A DNA stretch of 42,930 nt from Promethearchaeota archaeon (GCA_048937485.1 JBHLND010000002.1:7068-49997); one strand, 5' to 3'; counted from the first letter of the stretch, positions 7,941 to 28,801 are shown. The notes: a model not told the origin generated them from the letters alone. A program made the numbers and translations.

Positions 7941-8093
7941 TTCTGACTACCTCTTAGTTCGGTCACTGACGCACTCAGTAGAGTGGTTTTAAATCTTGCT
8001 TACTGACAAAGCTCTTGCTTCATCTGGACAAATCATTCCCTTCAAATACAGTTGATAGTGTGGGATGAATTGTTCTTGACTGGAGGCCAACAA

Positions 8094-9107: not shown

Positions 9108-9127
9108 AAAATGTTAACCTGAAGCAA

Positions 9128-9682
9128 TTAGTCGAAGCCCAATTCTGCTTTGGCCTCTGCTTCCTGTTGACTCTCCAATATGCGCTTCATCTTGAATTTT
9201 AGCTGAGCTTTCATTTTGACCCTGTCCGAATCCAAGCCAAAGTAGTCTGCAAAGAGTTGTGTTGTCTTCAGGAGTTTGCTTCGCCCTTCCGGCACTGCGT
9301 CTATGAACTTCTTTTCCATGAGCTCTTTAATGTGGTCATAGCAATGCGTGCCTCTTTGTGCTACAAGCTCCGATTGCAGAATTGGTTGTTTTAAAGCGAC
9401 ATAAACAAGCGTCTGCAATGTTGCAAAGGATAGCAAGCCTCCTGGTATCAACCTGGCCACCTCTGGAGTAAGCTCAGGTTTGAGCTGCATCACATATCTC
9501 TCACGAGGAAGCTCCACTACCTCTAGAGCCCCTTTTCGTTTTCTGTACTCAAAACCGAGGTTTTCAAGTAGTCTCTTAGTAGTTGATTCTGCTTTACCTA
9601 TGATGGAGGCAAGCTCATCCAATGCAATTGGTCTGCCAGCCACGTAAAGGGCCGCTTCAAGCTTGACTACATCCTCGTCCAA
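9128..9682 (-). CDS. scpB: segregation and condensation protein B (ScpB)
   Basis: LEAALYVAGRPIALDELASIIG... tandem winged-helix pattern. Lies immediately downstream of scpA (9-nt gap). Confidence 0.85.
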   Translation of the reverse strand: MDEDVVKLEAALYVAGRPIALDELASIIGKAESTTKRLLENLGFEYRKRKGALEVVELPRERYVMQLKPELTPEVARLIPGGLLSFATLQTLVYVALKQPILQSELVAQRGTHCYDHIKELMEKKFIDAVPEGRSKLLKTTQLFADYFGLDSDRVKMKAQLKFKMKRILESQQEAEAKAELGFD

Positions 9683-9691
9683 CTACATCAC

Positions 9692-10411
9692 CTATGGTTC
9701 AATTACTGATTCCGCTACTGCTTCTTCGTCTTCTTCCTCTGGAGGTGGAGGAGATTGAAGCTTGACCCAGATCACGTCTTCTTCATCCATCCATATGTCT
9801 ATGTACGCCCTAGCAAAGAGATGAAGAAGTGCAAAGAACACGCGCACAATCTCTCGCCGGGTGTTATTCATAAGCAGCTCAACAAAACTGGAAACTTCTC
9901 CAATCTTCATTACCTTACACAGGTCTGAATAGACTTCAGAGATGTTCTCTTCAACATCTGCACGCATGGACTCCATTTTGAAGGCCAGCGGGTCCGCTCT
10001 TGTGCTGTATCTTCTTCTCCTTGATGGACTAGAGCGTTGGCGAACGCCTTTGCTCATCACCCGATCCATGGCAATAAGCAGCTCTTCCAATGTTACTCTC
10101 TGATTGCCAACTCTAAATGGAGGGCGAATTAAGGGAATAATCAGTTCTTCATCATCATCCATATCTTCAGGCGGAAGTAAACCAAGCTCAACAAGTTCTT
10201 TCGTTTTCTTCATGAATATGACAGAAGCTGAATACAGAGCGCTTCCTGAGATTCGAAAATCAATATCACCCAGTAGCCTCATCTCTTTGAGAAATCCCGC
10301 CACAAGTTTCCCGACATTAACATTCCAGGGCTCAACCTTGTCAAGCTGAAGGACATCGGTCAATAGAATATATGGCGGAACCGCCCAGAATGGAGCGTTC
10401 TCTTCGCTCAT
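9692..10411 (-). CDS. scpA: segregation and condensation protein A (kleisin ScpA)
   Basis: The N-terminal LDKVEPWNVNVGKLVAGFLKEM and C-terminal winged-helix pattern match kleisins. Its start overlaps the smc stop in an ATGA (10408-10411), implying translational coupling. Confidence 0.85.
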   Translation of the reverse strand: MSEENAPFWAVPPYILLTDVLQLDKVEPWNVNVGKLVAGFLKEMRLLGDIDFRISGSALYSASVIFMKKTKELVELGLLPPEDMDDDEELIIPLIRPPFRVGNQRVTLEELLIAMDRVMSKGVRQRSSPSRRRRYSTRADPLAFKMESMRADVEENISEVYSDLCKVMKIGEVSSFVELLMNNTRREIVRVFFALLHLFARAYIDIWMDEEDVIWVKLQSPPPPEEEDEEAVAESVIEP

Positions 10412-13400
10412 GCTGTTGAACCAACCTCCTCCAGATCAACCTTAACAATGCGTGATATTCCGTCTTGGTTGGAAACTCCTATCAATAGGTCTGCCTTCTG
10501 CACAGTAGTATCTCTTAGTGACACGACAACAAATTGAGATGACTTGGACATTTCGGATATCAGAAGCGCGACGTTATGAGCATTGACGTCGTCAAGAGCT
10601 GCATCAATCTCATCGAATATGTAAAAGCTGGCTGGATTATACATCTGAATTGCGAAGATTAGCGCAAGTCCAGTAATCGTCTTCTCACCCCCGCTCATGG
10701 CATCTAAGGTTACAAGCTCCTTTCCTCTGGGCTTGGACTTGACAGTGATTCCTCCCATCAAAGGATGCTCTGGATTCTCAAGCATGAGGGTCGCTTCTCC
10801 ACCAGGTGAGAGCTTGGAGAACACGAGGGCAAAATTATCAGCAATATCATTATAGACTTGAAGAAACTTGCGTGTTTTTTCTGCCTCTATCTCTTCCATG
10901 AACGCAAGAATCTCTTTGTGTTCCTCTTCAAGGCTAGCTTTCTTGTCCACAATCTCCTCATATCTGTCCTTTTCTATATCATAGTCTGTGAGGGACTTGA
11001 GATTCACTGGCCCCAGGGCCTCTAATTCTCTCTCACGCTCCTTAATCTTCTCGTCAAAATCATCAATTTCCTTGTAGGTCAGCTCTCTCAGAGAAATTCT
11101 CTTTGCGATTTCTTCATCCGCCTTTGCGACTTCGTTAAGCTCTGCAACATAACCAACCATATCTGTTTCCAGACGTGACTGTTCCGTTTGGAGTCGATAA
11201 ACTGCTTTCTCATTTGCAGTCTGTTCTTCTCGAATCTCTTCATGTCTCAATCTGAAGTTGCGAAGCTGTTCTTTAAGCTCAAGCTGAAGGACACGCTTGT
11301 CCTTTACCGCATCATCAATCTTCTCTCGTTCCGATTTGAGCTTTAGAAAGTCCTTTTCCTTCTTTGATAGCTCATCCTCAAAGGCCTTCACTTTTTCATC
11401 TAGCGACGGAATGCCTTTGACAAGAGTCTGATAGCGAAGGTCAAACTCCATTAGTTTCGGTTTCAGTCTCTCTTCAAGCGCAACTCTTAGAGATGTTATT
11501 TCACTAGTTAATGCTTCACGTTCCTTCTTGTGATGAGCAATGACCTCCTTCAGGTCTTTCAAGTACTGCGTGAGTTTTGCTGTATCTGATGTGGCCAGCT
11601 GCTCATTGACATCATCTCTCTGTTCTCGAACCATCTCCCGATGTTCCGTTAGCTCACCATCTCTTTCGGTAAGCTCAGCGATCTGCTTCTCCAATGCCTC
11701 AATTGTGACATTGGCTGTTTCAATTCGGCCTTTCAGAACTTCAGAACGATTCTCTCTCTCTTTCAAACGCTCTTCATGCCCATCTAGTTCTAATTTGGCT
11801 CGATAGTTTGACCTAGAAAGGTCCTGTATCTCTTGATCATGGATGTTCTTCTGTCGTCTTAGGTTCTCCTGCTGTGTTCTGAGTTCAGACAGTATCTCTT
11901 CAAGACCTTTCAATTTCTCTGCAATTTGAGGGCTAATATCCTTCTCCTGCAAGGAGAGTCCCACATCAGCACGGTGATAATGTCCACCTGTAATCAAACC
12001 GGATTTCTCCACCAGATCGCCCTCGAGAGACACTGCTCTCAGTCCCTTGAATCCTAGCTTCTTCGCGGTTTCAAAATCTTCAGTGACAAAGGTGTCTGAA
12101 AACACGAACTCGAACGCTGGACGCATTTTCGAATCAAAAGTGACAAGATCTATTGCATAGCCAATAATCCCATCATCCTTCGGTAGCTTCCCGGGAGCTC
12201 GAGATTTTATTCTATTGAGAGGAATGAATGATGCTCTGCCTACACGTTCTCTCTTCAAGAAGTCGACGCAGTCACTTGCAACATCATCATTCTCCACTAC
12301 CACATATGATAGGCGGCTCCCTCCAGCTACTTCAAGCGCTGTAGCATACTCTGGATTAATGACACCAAGCTCCGCAACAGTTCCGTAAATTCCTTCGATG
12401 GTGCTTGAGTCACGTAGTTCAAGCACCCTTGCAAGGGCTCGCTTTCTCTTTAAGAACGCCTCCTCTGCATCCTTTAGAGCGTCTTGTCGAGCTTGAACGC
12501 GAATCAGTTCTTCTCTTGTAGCCTTTACAATTCTCGCCGATTCTTTCTCCTCTTTGTCAACAGTGGCTAGCTGTTCCTCTAGGCTCTCTACCTTAGACCG
12601 CTTGGATGCTTCTTCTTCTTCTGACTTCTGGAGTCCATCACGCTTGACAGGAATGACTCTTCTCAGTTCTGCAAGCTCATTGTCAGTTCTTTCCAAGAGA
12701 TCCTTTGCATCGCGAAGCTCTTCGTAAGCCATGCCCAATTCCTTACTGTCACTCTTTATAGCTGAGCGAACCTCAGAAACACCCTCATCAAGCATTCTCA
12801 TCTGATTGTTGAGATCTTGCATTCGCTGAGTAGCTTCAAGCACACTCTCCTGTTCCTTCTCAATGTGATTCTCCAAATTATCAATTTTAGAGGCACACTC
12901 TGAAATTTCATCATCAAGTCTTGCTAGTTCCTGGTCCTTTTCACCAATGAGGGATTTGGAGCCGCTTATCTGTTCCTGAATAGACTCCATCTCCACATGA
13001 AGTGCATCTCTCTCACTTGTAGCGGCATTAAACTCGCTTTTGGAACGTTCCAAGTCACTCTTGGCATGGTCTACTGCTGCCGAAACGACTCCATATTGCT
13101 CTGAAACTCTAGCTGAGGCCCCACCTGTTATCTCGTCTATTTCTGCATCTATCCCATCAATCTGTTCTTCAGTGGCTTTGACCTTTTCCTCAACCTCTGC
13201 CTGTTCCCTGACAAGTTTCTCTGCTTCCTCAGCTCTCTCTGCTAGTGTTTCATGAATTGCTTCAATTCGATTCTTGCCCTTCACTGTTCTCCATGCGAGA
13301 CTGTCAATCGAAATCTGGCGAATTTGATTTGTCAGTTTCTGATGTCGTAAAGCATCCGTCCTCTCTTCATCAAGCTTCTCAAGCTGTCGTCTTCGTTCCT

Positions 13401-13998
13401 GTAATTGCATCTCTACTTTTCCAAGATTAGCCTCACTCTCTGCCAATTTCTTCAGAGCACGTTCTTTTTGCTCGTCATAGGCCGCTATTCCAGCAATCTC
13501 CTCAATTAACTTACGACGGTCAATTGGACTTACTTTCACAATCTGTGCAATTTCGCCCTGAAGAACAAGATTGTACCCGTTCGGATCAACCCCGATAGCG
13601 CCTAGTATGTCAAGAACTGTTGTTCTTGTCACAACTTTACCATTGATTCTACAAACGGATTTTCCAGAATCGTCAAGTTCTCTCTCAATAACAACCTTGT
13701 CCGCTTCAATCTGTAGCTTCCTATCACGATTATCAAAGTGCAGTTCAACTACAGCAGATTTTGCCTTTGGTGGCATATTGGGTTTTGGTGGAGAGTATAG
13801 AAGGTCTGAGAATACATTTGCTCGAAGCGTCTTGGCACTCAGCTGACCAAGGACAAAAAGAATCGCATCAACAACATTCGATTTACCGGAGCCATTGGGA
13901 CCAACAATACAAGTGAATCCCTTACTGAGATTAATCGTTACATTCTCTCGTCCAAATGACTTGAAGCCCCTGCACACCAGCTTGTCAATATGGACCAA
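10408..13998 (-). CDS. smc: chromosome segregation ATPase SMC (condensin)
   Basis: Walker A GPNGSGKSN, hinge GIYGTVAELG...ALEVAGG, signature SGGEKT, Walker B FYIFDEIDAALD, and long coiled coils (1196 aa). The TTG start is forced (see findings). Confidence 0.95.
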   Translation of the reverse strand: MVHIDKLVCRGFKSFGRENVTINLSKGFTCIVGPNGSGKSNVVDAILFVLGQLSAKTLRANVFSDLLYSPPKPNMPPKAKSAVVELHFDNRDRKLQIEADKVVIERELDDSGKSVCRINGKVVTRTTVLDILGAIGVDPNGYNLVLQGEIAQIVKVSPIDRRKLIEEIAGIAAYDEQKERALKKLAESEANLGKVEMQLQERRRQLEKLDEERTDALRHQKLTNQIRQISIDSLAWRTVKGKNRIEAIHETLAERAEEAEKLVREQAEVEEKVKATEEQIDGIDAEIDEITGGASARVSEQYGVVSAAVDHAKSDLERSKSEFNAATSERDALHVEMESIQEQISGSKSLIGEKDQELARLDDEISECASKIDNLENHIEKEQESVLEATQRMQDLNNQMRMLDEGVSEVRSAIKSDSKELGMAYEELRDAKDLLERTDNELAELRRVIPVKRDGLQKSEEEEASKRSKVESLEEQLATVDKEEKESARIVKATREELIRVQARQDALKDAEEAFLKRKRALARVLELRDSSTIEGIYGTVAELGVINPEYATALEVAGGSRLSYVVVENDDVASDCVDFLKRERVGRASFIPLNRIKSRAPGKLPKDDGIIGYAIDLVTFDSKMRPAFEFVFSDTFVTEDFETAKKLGFKGLRAVSLEGDLVEKSGLITGGHYHRADVGLSLQEKDISPQIAEKLKGLEEILSELRTQQENLRRQKNIHDQEIQDLSRSNYRAKLELDGHEERLKERENRSEVLKGRIETANVTIEALEKQIAELTERDGELTEHREMVREQRDDVNEQLATSDTAKLTQYLKDLKEVIAHHKKEREALTSEITSLRVALEERLKPKLMEFDLRYQTLVKGIPSLDEKVKAFEDELSKKEKDFLKLKSEREKIDDAVKDKRVLQLELKEQLRNFRLRHEEIREEQTANEKAVYRLQTEQSRLETDMVGYVAELNEVAKADEEIAKRISLRELTYKEIDDFDEKIKERERELEALGPVNLKSLTDYDIEKDRYEEIVDKKASLEEEHKEILAFMEEIEAEKTRKFLQVYNDIADNFALVFSKLSPGGEATLMLENPEHPLMGGITVKSKPRGKELVTLDAMSGGEKTITGLALIFAIQMYNPASFYIFDEIDAALDDVNAHNVALLISEMSKSSQFVVVSLRDTTVQKADLLIGVSNQDGISRIVKVDLEEVGSTA

Positions 13999-14154
13999 GA
14001 TGCATTCCCTTCCAACTATCTACCAACACTCAAAGACTTTGGCGTGTCTACATCGAACATCCTCCACAGCCCCTAATATGGTTGGTACTACCCGTGTAAT
14101 ACCCTGACCATATTCAGGTATTGCTGTGTGTACCTAGATGAGCATACTATAGCC

Positions 14155-14161
14155 AAAAAAA
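14155..14161 (-). terminator. T7 tract (minus strand) downstream of the Roadblock gene; candidate archaeal oligo-T terminator
   Basis: The plus strand shows A7 at 14155-14161, i.e. TTTTTTT on the coding strand about 33 nt after the stop of ORF 14194-14586. Confidence 0.3.
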
Positions 14162-14193
14162 GGTAGCTCTGTGGTTCCGGAGCGCCCTCTTGA

Positions 14194-14586
14194 TTAATCT
14201 AGCATTGACAATAGGGCGCGTTTCAAGGCCATTCGAATGAGGCCCATAGATTCGCGCGCTCCTTCACCTGCAATTCCAGCCAGCACTATTTTGACATCGC
14301 CTAGGACGACAATGAATCCATTATCTGCAGCAATTGACACTTCCTTTAAGCCGCCCTTGTCCAGACCACTCGCCAGCTGAGATGAGTTTGATGCAATCTT
14401 TACCGCTAGAGATGCAATGTCAGAGTGCTTCACTCCTGCAGCAACAGTGTGGCCAAAGACCACATCTCCTTTTGCGTTGCAAACTACAATTCCTTCAAGA
14501 TTCTCATTCGCTGACATTGTGTTTGCCACGACTTTCTCAATCTTGGATTTGTCGACCATCTCAAAATTTCCTCCGTGCGATGCCAT
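14194..14586 (-). CDS. Roadblock/LC7 (MglB-like) domain protein
   Basis: IEKVVANTMSANENLEGIVVCNAKGDVVFGH...ASLAVKIASNSSQLASGLDKGGLKEVSIAADNGFIVVLGDVKIVLAGIAG follows the alpha-beta-alpha Roadblock pattern seen in the three paralogues at 17.4-19.3 kb. Confidence 0.75.
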   Translation of the reverse strand: MASHGGNFEMVDKSKIEKVVANTMSANENLEGIVVCNAKGDVVFGHTVAAGVKHSDIASLAVKIASNSSQLASGLDKGGLKEVSIAADNGFIVVLGDVKIVLAGIAGEGARESMGLIRMALKRALLSMLD

Positions 14587-14701: not shown

Positions 14702-15424
14702 GTGAAACGGCGTAAGAAATCTGGTTTCATAATGATTGCTTGTATCTTGTTCCTACCAGCGTTTGTTGTTGCGAACAACCAGGGTTTAAGATGGGCCGTA
14801 CAGATCGGAAATAGGCACGAGTTTTCCTTCACCTTTAGGCAGGTTGAGCATCGTACTGGCTGGCCAGATGAAGTGATAGCAATTAATGATGAAGCTATTT
14901 ACTTTGAAGTTGTGGATCTTCCCACTATCCCTGACAATATCCAATATGTTGAAGAACTAGTCTATCCGGAGATTTCCCTACATTATGAGAATGGGACTCC
15001 ACTGTCACTTTCAGATTCCCGTGTGCATTTCGCATATATTGATGGAATATTCATAGCGCCTGTGGGCAATTGGCAATTGCTGACCTCATTACCGTCCAAT
15101 ATGACCACCACAACAACTACAACAACAACAGTCACATACGAACACGAAGTAACACGTATAGACAATCTCATACACTGGGGCTGGACGTCTTCATACTCTG
15201 ATTCATGGAGTTCGCAAAACATAACCCAGGAATACTACAAATCAGATGGAGTTCTTGGCTACCTTTCACTTAACATAACAGCTTACAATGACTTCTCCAC
15301 ATTGATATCATTCGAACGATTGAATCCGCCCTCAGCTATCGGACTTGTCGAGCTCAGTCTAATCATTGGAGGAGCAGCCGCTGTTGTCATTGTTGCTATC
15401 ATTATTATAAAACGAAAAACATAG
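14702..15424 (+). CDS. surface protein with signal/anchor, poly-Thr linker and C-terminal TM + KRK tail
   Basis: N-terminal hydrophobic segment, a run of nine Thr, several N-x-S/T sequons, and a C-terminal TM (LIIGGAAAVVIVAIIII) followed by KRKT. Distant paralogue of ORF 32760-33413. GTG start. Confidence 0.6.
   Translation: MKRRKKSGFIMIACILFLPAFVVANNQGLRWAVQIGNRHEFSFTFRQVEHRTGWPDEVIAINDEAIYFEVVDLPTIPDNIQYVEELVYPEISLHYENGTPLSLSDSRVHFAYIDGIFIAPVGNWQLLTSLPSNMTTTTTTTTTVTYEHEVTRIDNLIHWGWTSSYSDSWSSQNITQEYYKSDGVLGYLSLNITAYNDFSTLISFERLNPPSAIGLVELSLIIGGAAAVVIVAIIIIKRKT
15104..15130 (+). repeat. ACC/ACA/ACT codon run encoding nine consecutive Thr
   Basis: ACCACCACAACAACTACAACAACAACA read directly from the sequence. 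It lies inside CDS 14702-15424, preceded by the sequon N-M-T. Confidence 0.9.
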
Positions 15425-15515: not shown

Positions 15516-17144
15516 ATGCCTATGCTGAGAACTAGCTCGGAGACCTTTCCGGCCTCCAAGAAAGTCATGAGCGATGTTCCTTACGTTGTTCGTGTTGAGT
15601 TCGGCGAACTAGCACGTGAAACGAAGAAGATCGTAGGAAAGCCAATTGCCTGCCATAAATGCAATGGCTTTCTACTAAGTGTGGATCAGATTAAGGATGA
15701 TCCGAAGGTTGGACAGCACTTCGTCTGTCCGTTCTGTGGAACGTTAAACGTAATTGAAGGAGAGATTGTTGTCGCTGGTGAGGACACCGACTTCGTTGTA
15801 AAGCCTCCAGAAGAAACAGTTACTGAAACTGGAGGAGTGTCTACTGGCGGTCGTTCGTTCTTGGCTCTTATTGATGTATCAGGGTCAATGGCAGGAGCTA
15901 ATCTTGCCGCAGTGAAGCGAAGCTTGACAACATCCATTGATAGTCTAGCGGCCAATGCTCCAAATACCATGTTTGGACTTATCGAGTTCGAGAGTACAGT
16001 CTTGGTTCGAAACCTAGAAACAGGTGCACCCATTGAGTTGCCTTCAGATACATTCATGAATTTGGACGATATCAAGAAAGCGACAAAGAAACTCCTTGAC
16101 AAGGTTCGCCTTGTTCAAGTGGGTGACAATGCCCCAAAGCTAAAGCAGCACGTGAGTGCTCTTCGCGACCAAGGAGGCACTGCACTTGGTCCTGCAATGG
16201 TCATGGCATCTGTTATTGCCAAGCATCGTGATGTTGGTCGGGTTGTACTTCTAACCGACGGACTTGCAAACGAGGGAATTGGAGCTCTCGAAGGCTACCA
16301 AGTCACTCCAGCAAATGCATTCTATGAGGATCTTGGAAAGTCTTTCCTAGACATGGGCGCTGCGGTAGATGTGGTTGGCATCGCATCCGGTGGCGCTATG
16401 GAGCTTCGTACCTTAGGTCTCCTACCTGAGGCAACGGGCGGTACAATGTACTACGTGACACCAAACGAACTCGATCGCAGTCTTTCAGAACTTGCTGGTG
16501 CTTCATTACTTGGTCGTGACGTCGAAGTAAAGCTGGTTACTCCTGAGGGAGTAAAGGTGAAGGACGCTTCAGGCGCGTCACGTGCAGTTCTTGATGAACT
16601 AAAGAAGAAGGGCAGCGGCAAGATAGGAGTGGTTGGAGAAGACCACGAACTCTACTTTGAGATTGAACCCGAGTCTAAAATCAAGGAGGAAGAGATTCCA
16701 ATACAGGTGCAAGTTGCCTACACAGATGAAGAAGGTGCTCGACGTGTGCGTGCAGTCACAACTAAGCTTCGTGTTTCAGACAAAGAAGACGAGATCATGA
16801 AGACCCTTGACCCCACAGTGGGGGCTACTTTCGTCACCCAGAAAGCTGGAGAAGATGCTGTTAGAGGTGACAGAAAGAAGGGCAAGGAGAGACTCGCAGC
16901 TTTCAGGTCTGCAATGAAGGTTCATGCCAAAGCGGCACCTGCCCCAGTGCAGAAGATGCTTGACAAGGCCGATGATGTTCTCGCTAGTGAAGAGGAAGAG
17001 CTTGAGCGTCAGGAGGAACGCATGAGAGAAGCTCCTGCTGGTGGTGCAGCTCCCTCTGCTGCAGCTGATATGTCTGCTGTTGAGAGCTTGGCCCAAATGA
17101 AGAGAAGCTCGAAGAAAATGTTTGACGACGAGGACGAAGCATAG
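15516..17144 (+). CDS. zinc-ribbon + von Willebrand A (MIDAS) + beta-rich domain protein with an acidic tail; Sec23/24-like domain order
   Basis: CHKC...CPFC ribbon (nt 15651-15737). vWA with DVSGS (nt 15873-15887), GGTALG and LLTDG. A beta-rich segment is followed by a helical, acidic C-terminus ending DDEDEA. GAGGT lies about 10 nt upstream of the ATG. Confidence 0.8.
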   Translation: MPMLRTSSETFPASKKVMSDVPYVVRVEFGELARETKKIVGKPIACHKCNGFLLSVDQIKDDPKVGQHFVCPFCGTLNVIEGEIVVAGEDTDFVVKPPEETVTETGGVSTGGRSFLALIDVSGSMAGANLAAVKRSLTTSIDSLAANAPNTMFGLIEFESTVLVRNLETGAPIELPSDTFMNLDDIKKATKKLLDKVRLVQVGDNAPKLKQHVSALRDQGGTALGPAMVMASVIAKHRDVGRVVLLTDGLANEGIGALEGYQVTPANAFYEDLGKSFLDMGAAVDVVGIASGGAMELRTLGLLPEATGGTMYYVTPNELDRSLSELAGASLLGRDVEVKLVTPEGVKVKDASGASRAVLDELKKKGSGKIGVVGEDHELYFEIEPESKIKEEEIPIQVQVAYTDEEGARRVRAVTTKLRVSDKEDEIMKTLDPTVGATFVTQKAGEDAVRGDRKKGKERLAAFRSAMKVHAKAAPAPVQKMLDKADDVLASEEEELERQEERMREAPAGGAAPSAAADMSAVESLAQMKRSSKKMFDDEDEA

Positions 17145-17155
17145 TCCAGATAATG

Positions 17156-17206
17156 GAGTGACACTAATTGCTGCAGTGTCACTCAGCCTTTCTTTTCATT
17201 TTGATT
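17156..17206 (+). terminator. perfect 10-bp hairpin followed by a T-rich tract; candidate terminator of the vWA gene
   Basis: GAGTGACACT (17156-17165), loop AATTGCTGC, AGTGTCACTC (17175-17184), then CTTTCTTTTCATTTTGATT (17189-17206). It begins 12 nt after the stop codon. Confidence 0.5.
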
Positions 17207-17251: not shown

Positions 17252-17290
17252 ATTGCGCAATCTATTGCGCAAAAGGGCTTACTGCGCCAA
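17252..17290. promoter_or_regulatory. tandem copies of the palindromic motif ATTGCGCAA; candidate transcription-factor operator upstream of the Roadblock operon
   Basis: ATTGCGCAA at 17252-17260 and again at 17264-17272 (12-nt period). The core TTGCGCAA is its own reverse complement. A degenerate third copy, TGCGCCAA, is at 17283-17290. A TATA-like CCTAAAATAC follows at 17307-17316, 60 nt before the TTG start at 17376. Confidence 0.35.
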
Positions 17291-17375
17291 GCAATATCAT
17301 GATAATCCTAAAATACCCAACTGCGGCGTAAGGAGTTGGCAAATGCCCAATTGATATCGGTGGAGTCTCTTCAGG

Positions 17376-17672
17376 TTGATAAGTCAAGAGAAGCTGCAGT
17401 CGATTCTTAATCGGCTCAAAGACCAAGATGGCGTTCGTGGAGTCGTTGTGACTACCATGGAGGGCCTTCCTCTCAGCAGCGATCTTGACCCTGACACCAC
17501 AGAGAATATTGCTGCTATCATTACCTCTCTCGTTGGAAAGGCCCTGGATGCAGTGCGCCTTCTTCGCGAGGGGTCGTTGTCCTTCCTCACGTTGGACACA
17601 ACACAAGGTCAAATAAACATCGCACCAGATGAAAAAGAGGGCCTGATATTAGTGGTCCTAAAGAAGAATTAG
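17376..17672 (+). CDS. Roadblock/LC7 (MglB-like) domain protein
   Basis: LQSILNRLKDQDGVRGVVVTTMEGLPLSS...IAAIITSLVGKALDAV...LSFLTLDTTQGQINIAPDEKEGLILVVL. TTG start with GGTGGAG 10 nt upstream. The only nearby upstream ATG, at 17343, runs into a stop after 3 codons. Confidence 0.8.
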   Translation: MISQEKLQSILNRLKDQDGVRGVVVTTMEGLPLSSDLDPDTTENIAAIITSLVGKALDAVRLLREGSLSFLTLDTTQGQINIAPDEKEGLILVVLKKN

Positions 17673-17689
17673 TATGGGGATGTAGCGGA

Positions 17690-18160
17690 ATGAGTGATCC
17701 GAAAGCTTTCGACAAAATCCTGACTGAAATCATCAGACAGGACAAGGGGATCAAGAAAGTAATCCTGGTTGACAAAACAGGACTGACAATTGCCAATGTG
17801 AGTAAGCTGAGCTATTACCCGGTGGACGTTGATAGCATCGGTGCGATTGCCAGTGCTGTGTTCTGTGCCAGTGAAGAACAGGGAAAGAACCTCCAGATTG
17901 GAGAACTGGAGATAGTGACATCGGAGTTTAGCGAAGGCAAGATCTTCGCCTCAGCCTGTGGAAAAGGTGTGCTCTGTGTGGTATCCGAGGCGGAAGTCAA
18001 CATTGGCCTTATACGCCTCGTCATGAAGAAACAGGGTGTACAGCTTGCTGATGAACTTGACAAGTTCTTGGCCGTTGAACCGATCTCTCCAAGTGGCAAG
18101 GACAAGGAGCTTGATGAGGAAGACCTCAAGTCTGCACTGGCGGAGCTCGAGAGGGTCTAA
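17690..18160 (+). CDS. Roadblock/LC7 domain protein with an acidic helical C-terminal extension
   Basis: FDKILTEIIRQDKGIKKVILVDKTGLTIAN...IGAIASAVFCASEEQGKNLQIGELEIVTSEFSEGKIFASACGKGVLCVV, plus a ~40-aa tail (KDKELDEEDLKSALAELERV). Lies 17 nt after the previous Roadblock gene. Confidence 0.8.
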   Translation: MSDPKAFDKILTEIIRQDKGIKKVILVDKTGLTIANVSKLSYYPVDVDSIGAIASAVFCASEEQGKNLQIGELEIVTSEFSEGKIFASACGKGVLCVVSEAEVNIGLIRLVMKKQGVQLADELDKFLAVEPISPSGKDKELDEEDLKSALAELERV

Positions 18161-18222
18161 CTATACAACAGATGACCCCTAGATGCTCCAATTGTGCCAC
18201 AAAGGCTTTTATGAGACCACAG

Positions 18223-18230
18223 TTTTAAAT
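18223..18230 (+). promoter_or_regulatory. TATA-box-like TTTTAAAT inside the 189-nt spacer; candidate internal promoter for the GTPase-Roadblock pair
   Basis: TTTTAAAT at 18223-18230 matches the archaeal A/T-rich TATA consensus. It lies 73 nt before the upstream mini-ORF ATG (18303) and 120 nt before the GTPase ATG (18350). Confidence 0.3.
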
Positions 18231-18349
18231 CATCAGCCCACTGAGCAAGGGCCTTTGGCTCAGGGACCTATGGAATAGATGCAGTGAAGCGAGGCAAACG
18301 GAATGCGCAAGGAAGACGTTCGGGAACTCAACGGTGAGGTGACGGCCTA

Positions 18350-18913
18350 ATGCGTAAAGATCAACAAGGTCGCATTCATCTCAAGTTAGTCTTCTACGGA
18401 CCTTCCCTCGGCGGTAAAACAACGGCCCTGAGATGGCTCTACGGGAAAGTTGAGGGTCTCCAGAAGGGTGAGTTCACTGCAATAGAAGATGAAACCAACC
18501 GTACCTTGTTCTTTGACTATGTGCCAATGAGTGCCGGCGGGCGTGTTCTCTTTGACGTATTCACTGTTGCAGGTCAGAAGCGACATAGACACCAGCGCAA
18601 GGTTGTACTCCAGGGCACTGACGGCATTCTGTTTGTTGCAGACTCGTCTCCTGACCAGAGAGATGAGAACACGGAGAGCTTTGAAGAACTAAAGCTGTTC
18701 TTGGGTGATGCGCTAGGGCGTGAGATACCCATTGTCGTTATGCTGAACAAACGAGACCTACCGAACCGGATGTCTCGCGATGAGATGCTTGACCTACTAG
18801 GTCTTGGTGGAAATGTGCCAATATACGAAACCATCGCCGTTCAAGGAGTTGGTGTCAAGAGGGCCTTTCAATCAATAGCGCGAGAGGTCATCCTTAAACG
18901 AATGTACAAGTAA
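18350..18913 (+). CDS. small Ras-superfamily GTPase of the MglA type
   Basis: G1 GPSLGGKT (nt 18398-18421), switch-I Thr (NRTLFFDY), G3 TVAGQ (nt 18563-18577; Thr instead of Asp, as in MglA), G4 NKRD (nt 18746-18757), and a G5-like ETIAVQGVGV. GGTGAGGTGA lies upstream of the ATG. Confidence 0.85.
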   Translation: MRKDQQGRIHLKLVFYGPSLGGKTTALRWLYGKVEGLQKGEFTAIEDETNRTLFFDYVPMSAGGRVLFDVFTVAGQKRHRHQRKVVLQGTDGILFVADSSPDQRDENTESFEELKLFLGDALGREIPIVVMLNKRDLPNRMSRDEMLDLLGLGGNVPIYETIAVQGVGVKRAFQSIAREVILKRMYK

Positions 18914-18921
18914 ATACCAAA

Positions 18922-19305
18922 ATGGTGAAGCCAATGGCAGAGAGCCGCGGAGATACATTGGAAAGCGTTCTTAATGAGCTGCAAGGCAGTATTCCTGAGA
19001 TTGAAGCTTGTGCTATTGTGAGTGTAGAAGGGCTTCCAATTGTATCAGCCCTACCAACTGATGTTGACGAAGCTAAAGTTGCAGCAATGACTGCAGCTAT
19101 GTTGACCCTTGGAGAGAAAGCAGCCATAGAATTAGGGAAAGGGAATCTAGAACAGGTCAACATCAAGGGAGTTGATGGGTGGCTACTTGTTGTTCAGGCA
19201 GGAATGAATGCATGTCTTACTGTTTCAACAACTGCAAGCGCCAAGCTTGGAATGGTATTTCTTGAAATGAAGAGAGCTGCTGAGAAAGTATCAGGGATGA
19301 TTTAG
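18922..19305 (+). CDS. Roadblock/LC7 (MglB-like) domain protein
   Basis: LESVLNELQGSIPEIEACAIVSVEGLPIVSALP...VAAMTAAMLTLGEKAAIELGKGNLEQVNIKGVDGWLLVVQAG. Lies 8 nt after the GTPase stop, the classic MglA-MglB adjacency. Confidence 0.8.
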   Translation: MVKPMAESRGDTLESVLNELQGSIPEIEACAIVSVEGLPIVSALPTDVDEAKVAAMTAAMLTLGEKAAIELGKGNLEQVNIKGVDGWLLVVQAGMNACLTVSTTASAKLGMVFLEMKRAAEKVSGMI

Positions 19306-19378
19306 TACACACACTCAGCTAGCACCAAGGCTATTAGGACATGCAAATTGTTTGGTACAATACTGGAACGTGAATTTA

Positions 19379-20146
19379 ATGAACCTGGCCGGACCCGTCT
19401 ACAGACTATACGAGTTCTATCTTCATAGTCAGTTAGACAAGGATAAGGCTCCTCGTCATGTAGGCATAATCTTGGATGGCAATCGTCGATATGCACGACA
19501 GCATGGTGCTGAAGTTCCATGGTTTGGCCATCACAAAGGTGCTCAGAAGGTAATGGAAGTTCTGAGAATCCTCTGGGAGGCTCAGGTGAAAGTCTGCACG
19601 CTCTATGCCTTTTCAGTGGAGAACTTTGAGAGAAACAAGGACGAAGTAAATGAGATCATGGCAATTGCTAAGGATAAGTTCAGTGAGGTTGTTGGAAATC
19701 CGGATGTTCATCGACATAAAGTACGGATTAGAGCTATTGGCCGAGTTGATCTCTTGCCCGAAGACGTTCAAAATGCCATTGCGCAGGCGGAAGCCGAAAC
19801 GATGGAATATACAGACCATGTTCTTAATGTCGCCATAGGATATTCAGGTAGAGCTGAGCTTGTTGATGCCGTCCAAGCGATTGGTCAAAAGATACGAGAC
19901 GGCGAGCTTGACCCTTCAGCAATAGATGAGAATATCATTGAAAGCCATCTTTACACCAATGGCATTCCTGATCCGGACCTCATTATAAGGACCTCTGGAG
20001 AGGAGCGTCTATCCGGATTCCTTCTTTGGCAGTCTGCTTATTCAGAGTTGTACTTCGCACAAATCTACTGGCCAGCTGTCAGGCGAATTGACGTTTGGCG
20101 AGCTCTTCGTTCATACCAGCAAAGAGCGCGTCGTTTTGGAAAGTAG
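19379..20146 (+). CDS. uppS: cis-prenyltransferase (undecaprenyl/dehydrodolichyl diphosphate synthase family)
   Basis: HVGIILDGNRRYA, FSVENFERNKDEV and IRTSGEERLSGFLLWQSAYSELYF. I prefer ATG 19379 (MNLAGPVYRLYEFY...); the track ORF starts at TTG 19352. Confidence 0.9.
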   Translation: MNLAGPVYRLYEFYLHSQLDKDKAPRHVGIILDGNRRYARQHGAEVPWFGHHKGAQKVMEVLRILWEAQVKVCTLYAFSVENFERNKDEVNEIMAIAKDKFSEVVGNPDVHRHKVRIRAIGRVDLLPEDVQNAIAQAEAETMEYTDHVLNVAIGYSGRAELVDAVQAIGQKIRDGELDPSAIDENIIESHLYTNGIPDPDLIIRTSGEERLSGFLLWQSAYSELYFAQIYWPAVRRIDVWRALRSYQQRARRFGK

Positions 20147-20233: not shown

Positions 20234-21430
20234 TTGGCTAGGAAGCCTATCGATGTCTACCGTGGACTGATCGCAACAACAATCCCCAGCGACGTCGCAT
20301 CACATATTGACTCTGTAGTAGGTCGCTACTCCACTCAGGTCTATGCGGGACAGAAGTTGACAATGCACCTTTCACGATTTGTGGAGATATGCTGCAAGCT
20401 AATCACCTTTCTTGATTCTAGGAATGCATCAGACCTCTCTGATCTTGCTAACGCTATCGATGTTCTCGACTACTTCACCTCAACCTCCAAGTGGTGGACT
20501 ATGTCTAGAGAAGACCCTGGTTTTCTTCTAAGACCCCCATCCCGAGATCCTAGAGAATTCATGCTCTCTTTGGCAGCTGTTCAGATTGGAGGAGATACAT
20601 CTGGAAGAGTCGCAGGAGCATCTGAAAAGCTTGCGAGATTCTTCGAAGACCATGGAATCACTGATACCAGAGTATGTGAGAAATTATGCGAGCGTTTTGT
20701 TTCGTCTTGGATCCTCCTGAGCGGCCTCGTATGCAAGAGCCAAGGGCGTAATATCACTACTGAAGGTGATTTCGAAATCGCCTATGACATCATGCGAGTT
20801 CTTCTCTTCTATACATCCCTTGACGACTTCAAAGCTCTCACCGCGATTCGTAGACTCGCAACTGATCCAAAGATTCCAAAACTTGCTGAAGTTTCCTTTA
20901 CTCCGGGATTCGAACGCAAACTAGATTCATCGATGGCTGCACGTCTTGAAAGATCAAACGAGGAAAAACTCGCGAAAATTGTTCCATCCTCACCAAGTGC
21001 ATCTCGCAACCTACTCACCAACTCGCTAAAGCTCCTAGCACAGATGAAGGCTATCGAACAAGGACTAATACGCATTGAGGAAAGCAACTATGATAGTCTA
21101 ATTCTTGGAGCCATGGAGATGCTGGAGCAAGTGGGAATCTCGCAGGATAGCTTCCGCGATGAAACATCTGTAAAAGCACTCTTTCTAGCTATACAGCCGG
21201 ATACGGGAACTGATGAGAAGATTGGTCTACTGATTAGAAGACTTGAAGGGCTACTGGTTGATTCCACTGGAAGCAAGGACTTTTTGCTACAGAATGCCAA
21301 ATTAATCCCAAGAATGGTCGCTTTGCTACTTCTTCTAGCTGGAGTGACCAAAGTATCTGAAATAGCAGGTTTGCAAGATGCAGACCTGAAGCGTGGTTTG
21401 ATTCTGTTTCACAGACTGCTTAATGGCTAG
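20234..21430 (+). CDS. hypothetical protein, predicted helical (398 aa); no recognisable family
   Basis: Long ORF with a TTG start preceded by a strong GAGGAGG about 10 nt upstream. Helix-favouring, Leu-rich composition throughout, with no TM segments. Its 3' end overlaps the convergent acdB gene by 11 nt. Confidence 0.6.
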   Translation: MARKPIDVYRGLIATTIPSDVASHIDSVVGRYSTQVYAGQKLTMHLSRFVEICCKLITFLDSRNASDLSDLANAIDVLDYFTSTSKWWTMSREDPGFLLRPPSRDPREFMLSLAAVQIGGDTSGRVAGASEKLARFFEDHGITDTRVCEKLCERFVSSWILLSGLVCKSQGRNITTEGDFEIAYDIMRVLLFYTSLDDFKALTAIRRLATDPKIPKLAEVSFTPGFERKLDSSMAARLERSNEEKLAKIVPSSPSASRNLLTNSLKLLAQMKAIEQGLIRIEESNYDSLILGAMEMLEQVGISQDSFRDETSVKALFLAIQPDTGTDEKIGLLIRRLEGLLVDSTGSKDFLLQNAKLIPRMVALLLLLAGVTKVSEIAGLQDADLKRGLILFHRLLNG

Positions 21431-28543: not shown

Positions 28544-28801
28544 CTAACCCGGTTCTCCCCGACACAAGCATTCTCGACCCTCGTCCATAGCTCCCCCTTT
28601 TCTTCTTGCTAGGAACACCAACACTATCACCACATCAAGAACTGCTGCACCTATAATAAGGAGGGGTTCAACTGGTAGCCCAATCGATACCACAGTCAAG
28701 ACAGCAAATCTGCTATTCGATTCCATATACCTTTGAACTAGCATTATTGCTGGTTTAACAATGCACCCATCTATCTTCCTCGCCATCTTCGATAGATCCA
28801 A
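28544..28801 (-). CDS. small membrane protein, unknown function (real start possibly ATG at 28744)
   Basis: Hydrophobic helices FAVLTVVSIGLPVEPLLIIGAAVLDVVIVLVFL. The first 19 codons overlap the end of ORF 28771-29979. The internal Met20 would remove the overlap. Confidence 0.35.
   Translation of the reverse strand: MDLSKMARKIDGCIVKPAIMLVQRYMESNSRFAVLTVVSIGLPVEPLLIIGAAVLDVVIVLVFLARRKGGAMDEGRECLCRGEPG

Follow-up and report, generated by a model that had tools for sequence, protein, structure and literature searches.

Four Roadblock paralogues encoded around a predicted MglA-type GTPase suggest an extended MglA/MglB switch in Asgard archaea

When several Roadblock-fold proteins are encoded beside a single small GTPase, as in the Asgard archaeon (Thorarchaeota) from which the window analyzed here derives (the whole stretch of 42,930 nt), the question arises whether they act on that GTPase together, and which known switch such an assembly resembles. 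The initial annotation had described three Roadblock genes (RB1, RB2 and RB3) and a GTPase gene as one module, and an ORF check together with a 24-sequence alignment reproduced the ORFs, their orientation, the spacers and the G1, G3 and G4 motifs. With a probability of about 0.6, we favor an Asgard version of the MglA/MglB switch that would be extended by three further, ancient Roadblock paralogues. The features of the locus are as follows.

14194..14586, minus strand: RB0, divergent fourth Roadblock paralogue, 130 aa (Robl_LC7 matches in orthologues, hhalign)
15516..17144, plus strand: Sec23/24-like protein, 542 aa (Pfam, PDB profile search, Foldseek)
17158..17182, plus strand: hairpin and T-rich run, possible transcript end of the Sec23-like gene (sequence read directly)
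17307..17315, plus strand: conserved TATA-like box, TCTAAAATA consensus, ~60 nt 5′ of RB1 (58 distinct Thor upstream regions)
17376..17672, plus strand: RB1, truncated Roadblock of RLC7 / dynein-light-chain type, 98 aa, TTG start (Pfam, structure match)
17690..18160, plus strand: RB2, MglB-like Roadblock, 156 aa (Pfam, structure match, LVDKxG)
18197..18218, plus strand: promoter-like block CCACAAAGGCTTTTATGAGAC, ~135 nt 5′ of the GTPase start codon (Thor upstream alignment)
18350..18913, plus strand: predicted Group-1-type MglA small GTPase, 187 aa (profile match, motifs)
18922..19305, plus strand: RB3, full-length Roadblock, 127 aa (Pfam Robl_LC7)
19352..20146, plus strand: cis-prenyltransferase of the UPP/dolichyl-PP synthase family, UPPS (Pfam Prenyltransf 4.5e-77)

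RB1, RB2, the GTPase and RB3 all lie on the plus strand at the coordinates first described, with spacers in the window of 17 nt (RB1-RB2), 189 nt (RB2-GTPase) and 8 nt (GTPase-RB3). RB0 points away from the cluster and is followed downstream, on the same strand, by SMC-ScpA-ScpB, and the Sec23-like gene, which had been overlooked, sits directly 5′ of RB1 on the same strand as the latter. Orthologues of all module ORFs keep their order across Thorarchaeota and other Asgard classes, and the ORFs are therefore real genes and not chance reading frames. This order was found in over 70 representatives of Thorarchaeota species, and each Roadblock paralogue occupies a place of its own in Thor, Baldr, Frey, Hermod and the L073, L076 and L094 loci; for RB0, positional orthologues are known from Thor, Baldr, Frey and Hermod and from L094, the last having RB3 inverted yet still adjacent. 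The linkage on which the description as a module relied thus proved conserved across Asgard classes, the genes not being generally scattered. Heimdall and Hod loci retain just three of the genes (RB2, the GTPase and RB3), with an inserted gene separating RB3 and the proximity otherwise retained, and at the L084 locus the cluster genes are dispersed. This dispersal and the missing RB0 and RB1 of Heimdall and Hod indicate that the full five-gene set is not obligatory.

The GTPase and the Roadblock RB2

The family profile of the GTPase matched the MglA structures of M. xanthus and T. thermophilus with E-values of 2e-49 to 4e-49, followed by Arf5 (2.7e-17, the best Arf) and Thor-Rab (4.8e-11), closeness to MglA being judged by these profile E-values. 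Pfam returned Arf (3e-14, 53 bits) and Ras (8e-8), of which the Arf match reflects general Ras-superfamily similarity. That the protein is of MglA type, with Thr in G3 as initially annotated, is nearly certain from these matches and its motifs. Group 1 MglA proteins have a Ras-like G domain with G1 GxxxxGK[ST] and G4 [NT]KxD, a Thr replacing the universal Asp in G3 (TVPGQ), and an intrinsic Arg finger just before the G2 Thr, where Groups 2-5 carry Thr; they are closer in sequence to MglA than to other Ras-superfamily groups, have mglB within four genes, and a Roadblock dimer stimulates their GTP hydrolysis (PMC4316618). The G1/G4 motifs, the G3 Thr, the Arg-Thr pair, the closeness to MglA and the coupling to mglB were all found here. 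Specifically, among 24 aligned Asgard orthologues, G17, G22, K23 and T24 of G1 (GPSLGGKT, residues 17-24) and N133, K134 and D136 of G4 (N133-K-R-D136) are invariant, as are T72, A74 and G75 of G3 (T72-V-A-G-Q76), in which Q76 is at least 90% conserved and Ala stands at the Pro position of the bacterial TVPGQ, a slight departure. R51-T52 in G2 is likewise invariant, its aligned counterpart in M. xanthus MglA being the Arg-Thr in DRTLFFDF, the G1-G2 region aligns gap-free with MglA, and the flanking of the GTPase by RB2 (189 nt upstream) and RB3 (8 nt downstream) is conserved. A total of 1828 homologues were found, of which the source-named ones all came from Asgard MAGs.

Two other GTPase identities were rejected. 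Arf and Sar proteins begin with an amphipathic helix (myristoylated at Gly2 in Arf) and have DxxGQ in G3; here the N-terminus MRKDQQGRIHLK is hydrophilic, the P-loop starts from residue 17 and G3 has Thr, not Asp. Rag/Gtr GTPases carry a C-terminal Roadblock domain fused to the G domain and a Gtr1_RagA signature; the 187 aa of the window protein are a G domain alone, and Pfam found no Gtr1_RagA match in it.

MglB is a dimer whose two-helix face binds one MglA, and RB2 is likely to be a direct MglB-like regulator of the GTPase. RB2 matched Robl_LC7 (1.4e-9), as expected of a Roadblock/LC7 fold, and MAPKK1_Int (1.6e-7), and a low-confidence monomer model (pLDDT 41) gave the secondary structure alpha-beta-beta-alpha-beta-beta-beta-alpha. 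Its closest solved structure is M. xanthus MglB (1e-4), in an alignment that runs into the C-terminal tail, and the LVDKxG motif common to RB2 and MglB is absent from the other three Roadblocks. In the protein, a variable linker joins the Roadblock core to an acidic C-terminal helix (residues ~140-156, nt 18107-18157), the tail ELDEEDLKSALAELERV being invariant in Thor and conserved across Asgard classes, with the pattern [DE][DE]L[KE][AS]AL.[EK]LE[KR][VF] kept in Thor, Heimdall, Frey, Hermod and Baldr. The same plan of core, variable linker and D/E-rich C-terminal helix is that of MglB, whose helix co-evolves with a basic alpha-5 of the GTPase (PMC6785124). Alpha-5 of the present GTPase is basic (K170, R171, R178, K182 and R183, with R178 aligning with M. 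xanthus K185), and the two sequences fit this co-evolution rule. The acidic helical extension of RB2, which the initial annotation had suggested as a possible docking arm, is thus no novelty but known MglB architecture (PMC6785124). RB2 did not pass the MglB NCBIfam equivalog model NF052242, which was built for Thermus-type MglB (it scored 20.9 bits where 200 are required), and is for this reason named MglB-like and not an equivalog.

Compared with bacterial MglA/MglB of M. xanthus and T. thermophilus, the GTPase thus shares the Group-1 hallmarks, the Arg-Thr pair and Thr-Val-x-Gly-Gln, while the host is an Asgard archaeon, RomR, RomX, RomY and motility genes were not found near the cluster, one Roadblock is a truncated dynein-LC7-like form, and four Roadblock paralogues accompany one MglA, against known ratios of 1:1 or 1:2 (PMC4316618). 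The set does, as had been claimed, go beyond a one-to-one pair, but bacteria, too, can have more than a single Roadblock for one MglA, as in the 1:2 MglA:MglB systems (PMC4316618) and with MglC, a second Roadblock dimer on MglB whose interaction with MglB is controlled by MglA-GTP in M. xanthus (PMC10329633).

The other Roadblocks and the comparison with Ragulator

The three Roadblock genes first recognized were supported by Robl_LC7 matches of RB1 (2.9e-16), RB2 and RB3 (2.7e-16), RB1 also matching LAMTOR5 (7.6e-7). For the proposed fourth Roadblock, RB0, the window copy had no Pfam match; four of its five orthologues matched Robl_LC7 (best 6.5e-13), and its family profile aligned with the RB3 family at an hhalign probability of 98.1% (E 6e-14), which substantiated the assignment. 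RB0, RB1 and RB3 each form an orthologous group of their own whose place in the cluster is fixed. Judged by their pairwise identities of 22-33%, the four Roadblocks are ancient divergent paralogues and not recent local duplicates, in agreement with the initial annotation; none of the findings that it had said would speak against it, such as scattered genes or recent duplication, was encountered.

The closest solved structure to RB1 is 7F8F (2.3e-24), followed by human DYNLRB1 (1.8e-12 to 2.7e-12). 7F8F, whose 94-aa chain carries the deposited name 'Robl_LC7 domain-containing protein', is 48-63% identical to the cluster RB1 genes, and is probably the Odin-RBLC7 of PMC10933270, a Roadblock without the C-helix. 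At 98 aa, close to the ~96 aa expected of DYNLRB, which lacks the C-terminal helix, and similar to DYNLRB in sequence, RB1 is by its sequence a truncated Roadblock type related to dynein LC7/DYNLRB. DYNLRB binds the dynein intermediate chain, and archaea are not known to possess dynein; the similarity concerns ancestry, not function. RB3 is closest to 7F8M (1e-22), a paralogue whose gene is found at another site in Thor genomes (83% match, L086:2590-2952) and probably the Thor-RB structure. Among the solved Asgard Roadblocks (Odin-RBLC7, Thor-RB and MKD1-RB), RB1 is thus a member of the 7F8F family and RB3 is a paralogue of 7F8M. Tran et al. (2024) studied Asgard Roadblocks singly, stated that GTPase genes of MK-D1 do not, as a rule, share operons with Roadblock genes, obtained homodimers in crystals of RB1 orthologues and of an RB3 paralogue, and pointed to truncated and full-length Roadblocks as the two kinds that form Ragulator dimers (PMC10933270). 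The preprint of PMC13408092 named Thor-Rab and Thor-RB, neither of which is in this cluster, as Thor counterparts of MglA and MglB; in the published version a Thor pair, probably the same, was modelled by AF3, with no C-terminal-helix binding reported. The homodimers seen in crystals do not favor obligate heterodimers.

In Ragulator, a LAMTOR1-type scaffold and two Roadblock heterodimers dock the Roadblock domains of Rag. On this pattern, which takes up the reading of the initial annotation, all three or four Roadblocks of the locus would form one hetero-oligomeric platform of stacked heterodimers on which the GTPase docks, with GAP, GEF and scaffold roles split among the paralogues, and the assembly would be a proto-Ragulator. 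Like Ragulator, the locus joins several Roadblock subunits with a small GTPase, and its one truncated and three full-length Roadblocks supply both Ragulator dimer kinds; RB1 passes the Pfam cut-off for LAMTOR5 (29.6 vs 27 bits) and RB2 that for MAPKK1_Int/LAMTOR3 (31.6 vs 25 bits), the four distinct orthogroups are conserved jointly across Asgard classes, and two gene pairs, RB1-RB2 and GTPase-RB3, show tight coupling. However, the LAMTOR scores of RB1 and RB2 fall below their own generic Robl_LC7 scores, RB1 is nearer to dynein DYNLRB1 than to LAMTOR5, and the Roadblock, dynein-LC7 and MglB similarities are altogether stronger than the LAMTOR ones. The GTPase is not Rag-like and has no C-terminal Roadblock domain of the kind by which Rag sits on Ragulator, and Pfam found no LAMTOR1-like gene among the neighbors; with the LAMTOR scores, these two absences led us to reject an identity with Ragulator. 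RB1 and RB0 are moreover missing at the Heimdall and Hod loci, and related Asgard Roadblocks form homodimers in crystals, so that we regard such a platform of heterodimers as unlikely. Because the Group-1-type MglA has no fused Roadblock and a LAMTOR1-like gene is missing, the Rag/Ragulator frame of the initial annotation reduces to an analogy. By this analogy and that with MglB/MglC, a physical multi-Roadblock platform is plausible.

Gene order, transcription units and the Sec23/24-like neighbor

Median spacers in Thor loci are 18 nt for RB1-RB2, 4 nt for GTPase-RB3 and 47 nt for RB3-UPPS (70 loci), and these lengths suggest that RB1-RB2 and GTPase-RB3(-UPPS) are probably two transcription units rather than one operon, UPPS possibly being co-transcribed with GTPase-RB3. 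The spacer between RB2 and the GTPase is a hotspot for insertions of unrelated genes, including insertions of kilobase size, which makes co-transcription of all four genes unlikely. Of 72 distinct Thor upstream sequences, at least 90% retain the core of the CCACAAAGGCTTTTATGAGAC block, and the block is kept even where kilobase insertions lie upstream of it; we infer that it is the GTPase promoter, and the TCTAAAATA box would likewise be that of RB1. The shared orientation of the four-gene module holds, and the module probably comprises two transcription units, given the hotspot and the promoter-like box of the GTPase.

UPPS is a conserved downstream neighbor, adjacent or nearby also in Hermod, Baldr, Frey, L084 and L094, and synteny between Thor and Frey extends to a wider AIRS-ScpB-ScpA-SMC...UPPS...ACS block. 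Inherited gene order, not selection, could thus account for part of the linkage. Carried further, this would mean that only RB2 and the GTPase cooperate, with RB0, RB1 and RB3 serving other GTPases or complexes and being placed here by the inherited order of a housekeeping region, as would accord with the opposite direction of RB0 upstream of SMC, the lack of RB0 and RB1 at Heimdall and Hod loci, and the dozens of Roadblocks and GTPases per Asgard genome (PMC4917890; bioRxiv 10.1101/2020.10.19.343400). We consider this improbable, since the short RB1-RB2 and GTPase-RB3 spacers indicate co-translation or co-transcription, RB3 stays close although inverted in L094 or split off by an inserted gene in Heimdall and Hod, and RB1 and RB3, with median identities among Thor species of 83% and 89%, exceed the 68-80% of housekeeping neighbors in conservation. 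The corresponding medians are 97% for the GTPase (72 species loci) and 94% for RB2, the most constrained Roadblock, in line with its assignment as the MglB-like partner.

The Sec23-like protein consists of a zinc ribbon, a vWA-type trunk, a beta-sandwich and a helical acidic tail, ending at residue 542. Its trunk (Sec23_trunk 6.2e-12, 46.1 bits, cut-off 27) and beta-sandwich (Sec23_BS 4e-8, 34.2 bits, cut-off 33.5) were recognized by Pfam and its zinc finger weakly (zf-Sec23_Sec24, 16.5 bits, cut-off 25), with CxxC...CxxC invariant in the family, so that the zinc finger, trunk and beta-sandwich of Sec23/Sec24, the COPII inner coat that works with Sar1, are all represented. Its profile retrieved Sec24 chains alone from the PDB, and the top 35 Foldseek matches of a poor model (pLDDT 52) were Sec23/Sec24. 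It differs from COPII in an intact vWA MIDAS motif, in an adjacent GTPase of MglA and not Sar1/Arf type, and in the gelsolin-like domain, which in Sec23 bears the Sar1-GAP arginine and was not found here by Pfam. This absence agrees with that in Asgard Sec23-like proteins (PMC11914678).

The Sec23-like gene adjoins RB1 in the Thor loci reaching that far and in all 12 further metagenome loci, out of 13, that reach past it. At 20 other Sec23-like loci, a Thor paralogue included, no MglA/Roadblock cluster was found within 10 kb; the linkage is seen in Thorarchaeota only, in one Thor orthogroup, and Frey, Hermod, Baldr, Heimdall and Hod have the Roadblock-GTPase cluster without a Sec23-like gene. 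The spacer to RB1 is at least 148 nt (56 Thor loci) and holds, 14 nt past the Sec23-like stop codon, a perfect 8-bp hairpin GTGACACT...AGTGTCAC with a T-rich run after it, which may be the transcript end of the Sec23-like gene. That the Thor Sec23/24-like protein is effector or co-regulator of the MglA-type GTPase, with the Roadblocks as GAP/GEF set and MglA replacing Sar1 in an inner-coat-like, proto-COPII module, would suit the shared strand, the three Sec23/24 domains and the finding of no nucleotide-dependent binding between Asgard Sec23-like proteins and an Asgard Arf (PMC11914678), which leaves room for another cognate GTPase, but it is very improbable given the missing gelsolin domain, the spacer with its hairpin and separate promoter-like box, and a single-class synteny that can be inherited gene order.

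A proposed Asgard MglA/MglB-type switch

In the extended MglA/MglB switch that we favor, an RB2-containing Roadblock dimer would dock on GTP-bound MglA and reposition R51 and Q76, resulting in GAP activity, the GTPase itself providing both catalytic residues, Arg R51 beside the G2 Thr and Gln Q76. With its acidic tail, RB2 would bind the basic alpha-5 of the GTPase and tune nucleotide exchange or affinity, much as MglB does in Myxococcus. The other three, RB1, RB3 and RB0, would be accessory dimers that recruit, stack on or localize the RB2-GTPase complex, a role modelled on MglC with MglB and on the LAMTOR dimers in Ragulator; that these three work physically with the GTPase we put at somewhat less than an even chance. 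The genes would be expressed as the two units RB1-RB2 and GTPase-RB3(-cis-prenyltransferase), and their output most likely falls in the class of spatial or polarity control, exerted at the cell envelope or the membrane. Conserved across most Asgard classes, the set points to the probable regulators of this one Asgard GTPase.

Gene content and surroundings of the Roadblock cluster

Inspection of the open reading frames bore out the coordinates, strand and spacers that the initial annotation had given for a Roadblock-Roadblock-GTPase-Roadblock module (RB1, RB2, GTPase, RB3), with 17 nt between RB1 and RB2, 189 nt between RB2 and the GTPase gene, and 8 nt between the GTPase gene and RB3; the Sec23/24-like gene directly upstream of RB1 had been missed. 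The quoted GTPase motifs GPSLGGKT, T72-V-A-G-Q76 and NKRD were likewise found in the sequence. The ORF proposed as a fourth Roadblock is indeed one (RB0): four of five of its orthologues match Robl_LC7, and its family profile aligns with that of RB3 (hhalign probability 98.1%, E 6e-14).

Features of the cluster and its neighbours in the window
14194-14586 (-): RB0, 130 aa, Roadblock paralogue; window copy without Pfam match
14702-15424 (+): 240-aa predicted membrane protein, hydrophobic N- and C-terminal segments, run of 11 threonines
15516-17144 (+): Sec23/24-like protein; zinc ribbon, vWA trunk, beta-sandwich
17158-17182: perfect hairpin and T-run after the Sec23-like stop codon
17307-17315: conserved box TCTAAAATA upstream of RB1
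17376-17672 (+): RB1, 98 aa, TTG start; Robl_LC7 2.9e-16 (Pfam)
17690-18160 (+): RB2, 156 aa; Robl_LC7 1.4e-9 (Pfam)
18197-18218: block CCACAAAGGCTTTTATGAGAC upstream of the GTPase gene, conserved in at least 90% of 72 sequences
18350-18913 (+): GTPase, 187 aa; Arf and Ras matches (Pfam)
18922-19305 (+): RB3, 127 aa; Robl_LC7 2.7e-16 (Pfam)
19352-20146 (+): UPPS, cis-prenyltransferase (UPP/dolichyl-PP synthase family), 3′ of RB3
20234-21430 (+): p398, 398-aa protein without Pfam match, kept 3′ of UPPS in Thorarchaeota loci

The region around the cluster is housekeeping in character. Genes for an AIR synthase-related protein, ScpB, ScpA, SMC and RB0 lie on the minus strand, while the plus strand carries, in order, the genes of the 240-aa membrane protein, the Sec23/24-like protein, RB1, RB2, GTPase, RB3, UPPS and p398, followed by those of the ADP-forming acyl-CoA synthetase (ACS) subunits. 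Rfam and tRNA scans found no Rfam family or tRNA in the window. The 240-aa protein has no Pfam match and no relative in any of about 90 syntenic loci, and its gene appears to be an insertion, peculiar to this genome, that separates RB0 from the Sec23-like gene. Elsewhere in the window, a small PCI-domain protein (2181-2708 (-), 2.8e-5) and a BNR/Sortilin-Vps10-like repeat protein (28771-29979 (-)) are encoded, both with domains best known from eukaryotes.

Conservation of the arrangement and predicted transcription units

A scan of one genome per species recovered about 75 Thorarchaeota loci whose GTPase is 90-98% identical to that of the window at the protein level, which places the window in a Thorarchaeote. 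The Thorarchaeota loci that extend far enough have SMC and RB0 on the minus strand, and Sec23-like, RB1, RB2, GTPase, RB3, UPPS and p398 on the plus strand. For the homologous loci fetched from other Asgard groups (L-numbers denote loci throughout), the family assigned to each ORF by HMM agrees with that expected from its position, and RB0 beside RB1, RB2, GTPase and RB3 was found in an outlying Thorarchaeota-like locus (L073), two Baldr loci (L077 and L080), a Freyarchaeia locus (L082), a Hermod locus (L085) and L094, where RB3 is inverted yet still adjoining. In Heimdall and Hodarchaeales, RB2 and the GTPase gene are still paired, and RB3 follows about 0.7 kb further downstream. At one locus (L084) the genes are dispersed, which fits the remark that in MK-D1 the GTPase genes as a rule do not share operons with Roadblock genes (PMC10933270).

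Two records carry taxon labels that may be wrong. L076, titled Thermoproteota archaeon S9B3_HD70, has RB1-RB2-GTPase-RB3 with Freyarchaeia-type downstream synteny (RB3, NTPase_I-T, M24 peptidase), and L078, titled Odinarchaeota AUK032, gives tblastn identities and HMM scores for the cluster genes that are the same or nearly the same as those of the Baldr locus L077.

Among Thorarchaeota species, the median identity was 97% for the GTPase, 94% for RB2, 89% for RB3 and 83% for RB1, compared with 80% for UPPS, 78-80% for the ACS subunits, 74% for the Sec23-like protein and 68% each for RB0 and SMC; thus, constraint on the GTPase and RB2 far exceeds that on the housekeeping proteins encoded around them. 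The p398 protein evolves fast (median 50%).

Several features of the neighbourhood reach beyond Thorarchaeota. The block from the AIR synthase-related gene through ScpB, ScpA and SMC to RB0 (window 8052-14586 (-)) is shared with Freyarchaeia (L082 70-6615), and in Thorarchaeota, Freyarchaeia and Hermod, though not in Baldr, RB0 is the gene immediately 5′ of SMC, in the same orientation. UPPS adjoins RB3 or stays within about 2 kb of it in L085, L077, L080, L094, L082 and L084 (Hermod, Baldr, Freyarchaeia and other Asgard), and the GTPase unit may be linked to lipid-carrier synthesis for the cell envelope.

A scan for sigma-70 promoters says little about archaeal DNA, and its counts were near those obtained with shuffled sequence; promoter-like elements were instead sought as conserved stretches between genes.

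Spacers in Thorarchaeota loci
Sec23-like to RB1: median 195 nt, never <148 nt
RB1 to RB2: median 18 nt, <60 nt in 58 of 60 loci
RB2 to GTPase: median 245 nt, >1 kb in 14 of 68 loci
GTPase to RB3: median 4 nt, <60 nt in 68 of 72 loci
RB3 to UPPS: median 47 nt, <60 nt in 64 of 70 loci

The RB2-GTPase spacer (window 18161-18349) is an insertion hotspot, in which the 14 long examples (including L001, L002, L025, L030, L034, L063, L065 and L071) contain unrelated genes, on one strand or the other, amounting to 1-4 kb, and the promoter-like block remains next to the GTPase gene in the loci with insertions. These spacers, the conserved boxes, and the hairpin and T-run behind the Sec23-like gene point to RB1-RB2 and GTPase-RB3(-UPPS) as the likely transcription units, and to a transcript of its own for the Sec23-like gene. 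Upstream of RB1, a palindromic octamer TTGCGCAA occurs as a direct repeat (TTGCGCAAtctaTTGCGCAA, window 17252-17271 (+)), the second copy of which is conserved among Thorarchaeota loci; the repeat may serve as a binding site for a regulator.

An MglA-type GTPase with a probable MglB-like partner and three further Roadblocks

A profile of 24 GTPase orthologues matched the solved MglA of M. xanthus and T. thermophilus at E 2e-49, compared with 3e-17 for the best Arf and 5e-11 for the solved Thorarchaeota Rab. Group-1 MglA proteins are defined by an intrinsic Arg directly before the G2 Thr and a TVPGQ G3 motif, instead of which Groups 2-5 have Thr-Thr and GTPGQ (PMC4316618, Wuichet and Sogaard-Andersen). 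In the present family, R51-T52 is invariant in 24/24 sequences, G3 reads TVAGQ, and the G1-G2 region aligns with bacterial MglA free of gaps. Classification as Arf or Rag was rejected on the defining features of those families: the protein has neither an N-terminal amphipathic helix nor a fused Roadblock domain, and so belongs to neither the Arf/Sar nor the Rag family. The protein itself is not new, since the 'MglA1' GTPases of Asgard archaea are already a recognised group (bioRxiv 10.1101/2024.02.28.582541).

Thorarchaeota genomes also encode a second MglA-like GTPase of 268-298 aa, about 52% identical and with a C-terminal extension (L086 10001-10849; homologues P0097-P0120). One such protein, P0102, is encoded at a locus that has no Sec23-like gene and no adjoining Roadblock gene, the nearest Robl_LC7 gene being about 7 kb upstream. 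Another paralogue, P0096, has neither Roadblock nor Sec23-like neighbours. These paralogues give no independent support.

The initial annotation had named recent, undiverged local duplication as an alternative origin of the Roadblock genes. With pairwise identities of 22-33%, RB0 to RB3 are, judged by sequence, ancient paralogues, and each of the three within the row has its own closest solved relative. For RB2 this is M. xanthus MglB (1e-4), in an alignment that extends into the C-terminal extension, and RB2 shares with MglB an LVDKxG motif that the other three Roadblocks do not have. Its tail consists of a variable Pro-rich linker and a helix, ELDEEDLKSALAELERV, which is invariant in Thorarchaeota and whose pattern [DE][DE]L[KE][AS]AL.[EK]LE[KR][VF] is kept in Heimdall, Freyarchaeia, Hermod, Baldr and others. 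This linker plus acidic C-terminal helix is the architecture known from MglB, whose D/E-rich C-terminal helix binds the basic alpha-5 of MglA, acts allosterically on nucleotide exchange and co-evolves with the basic alpha-5 residues (PMC6785124, Baranwal et al.). The alpha-5 helix of the GTPase carries K170, R171, R178, K182 and R183, with R178 aligned to M. xanthus K185. As RB2 scores below the NCBIfam MglB equivalog cut-off, we call it MglB-like.

RB1 is a truncated Roadblock whose best match is 7F8F (2.3e-24, a 94-aa chain), probably the Odin-RBLC7 of Tran et al., which is without the C-terminal helix (PMC10933270); next comes human dynein light chain DYNLRB1 (about 2e-12), and the 'RLC7 dynein homolog' reported from Lokiarchaeum (PMC4917890) is the counterpart of RB1. 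RB3 is full-length, and its best solved relative, 7F8M (1e-22), is an RB3 paralogue encoded elsewhere in Thorarchaeota genomes (83% match at L086:2590-2952) and probably Thor-RB. The L086 copy sits about 7 kb upstream of the second MglA-like GTPase gene.

Homologue searches with RB2 and the Sec23-like protein had Thorarchaeota proteins only among the 120 matches listed, and orthologues from other classes were taken from the fetched loci. Because the alignments consisted of Thorarchaeota sequences only, the AlphaFold2 monomer models of these two proteins were poor (pLDDT 41 and 52, respectively) and were used solely for secondary-structure patterns and a Foldseek family check.

The homology, motifs, conservation and linkage observed for the cluster are best accounted for by an MglA/MglB-type switch, from which we infer all contacts and activities of its proteins. 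A Roadblock dimer with RB2 would bring R51 and Q76 of the GTPase itself into position and so activate hydrolysis, the RB2 acidic tail would act on the basic alpha-5 helix, and RB1, RB3 and RB0 would serve as accessory Roadblock dimers. Precedent for such accessory dimers exists in M. xanthus, where MglC, as a Roadblock dimer, engages two dimers of MglB in a contact that MglA-GTP disrupts; the authors of that study liken the arrangement directly to Ragulator (PMC10329633). The observation behind the initial annotation was thus confirmed, and its interpretation is supported in part.

The Sec23/24-like neighbour and the meaning of the cluster

The Sec23-like protein matches Sec23_trunk (6e-12), Sec23_BS (4e-8) and, weakly, the Sec23/24 zinc finger in Pfam; in the PDB, its profile matched only Sec24 chains, and the poor model gave Sec23/Sec24 for all of the top 35 Foldseek matches, followed by the archaeal ArnAB complex. 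Throughout the family, CxxC...CxxC is invariant and the vWA MIDAS motif is intact. Since its SMTZ1-45 orthologue is annotated 'SEC24 family transport protein', it is probably the known Thorarchaeota Sec23/24 signature protein. Thorarchaeota homologues of Sec23/24 were reportedly first described in a 2017 Nature paper. The family lacks a gelsolin domain, in agreement with what is known of Asgard Sec23-like proteins (PMC11914678).

Adjacency of the Sec23-like gene and RB1 holds in the Thorarchaeota loci that reach so far and in 12 further metagenome loci (12 of 13 extend past the Sec23-like gene). A general Sec23-MglA coupling was rejected, as 20 loci of other Sec23-like members, including a Thorarchaeota paralogue (SMTZ1 contig), have no MglA/Roadblock cluster within 10 kb. 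The linkage is lineage-specific, and functional coupling to the cluster is therefore of low probability. A much wider reading, which we consider a long shot, takes stacked RB0-RB3 dimers around an MglA-type GTPase, Asgard-wide, as the common ancestor of dynein LC7/DYNLRB (through RB1) and of LAMTOR scaffolds (through RB2-like subunits), coupled in Thorarchaeota to the Sec23/24-like protein as a coat-like effector driven by MglA and not Sar1; if true, this would explain why Asgard Sec23-like proteins did not respond to an Asgard Arf.

Returning to the MglA/MglB-type switch, the cluster is an MglA/MglB module to which three conserved Roadblock paralogues are added; the ratios of MglA to MglB known so far are 1:1 and 1:2 (PMC4316618). 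Three Roadblock/longin and two small-GTPase families are in the Asgard core gene sets, and the conserved neighbourhoods reported with them are ESCRT and a LAMTOR1-like/Rab-like/DENN operon (bioRxiv 10.1101/2020.10.19.343400). No description of the five-gene set was found in the main texts of the papers searched. A 'Thorarchaeota' MglA/MglB pair was modelled by AF3 in a 2026 paper, with no C-terminal-helix binding (PMC13408092), and its preprint names Thor-Rab and Thor-RB as the counterparts. Neither is in this cluster, and the published pair is probably the same two proteins, which suggests that recent discussion and modelling used proteins outside the cluster. The pair indicated by the gene context of the cluster is better founded as a cognate one.

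Small GTPases and Roadblock or longin proteins number in the dozens in Asgard genomes (PMC4917890; bioRxiv 10.1101/2020.10.19.343400). According to one published statement, genome layout does not allow regulators to be assigned to GTPases (PMC10933270), and the cluster clearly runs counter to this; another holds that the targets of the GTPases might come to light through operon analysis (PMC4917890). In the cluster, across most Asgard classes, a single highly conserved GTPase is joined by a specific MglB-like protein and three more Roadblocks, which makes five small soluble proteins a defined and testable set for reconstitution. The cluster also has an archaeal protein related to the Roadblock light chain of dynein among the genes of a GTPase and its regulators, which fits the old proposal, said to be that of Koonin and Aravind in 2000, that the Roadblock family began as NTPase regulators.
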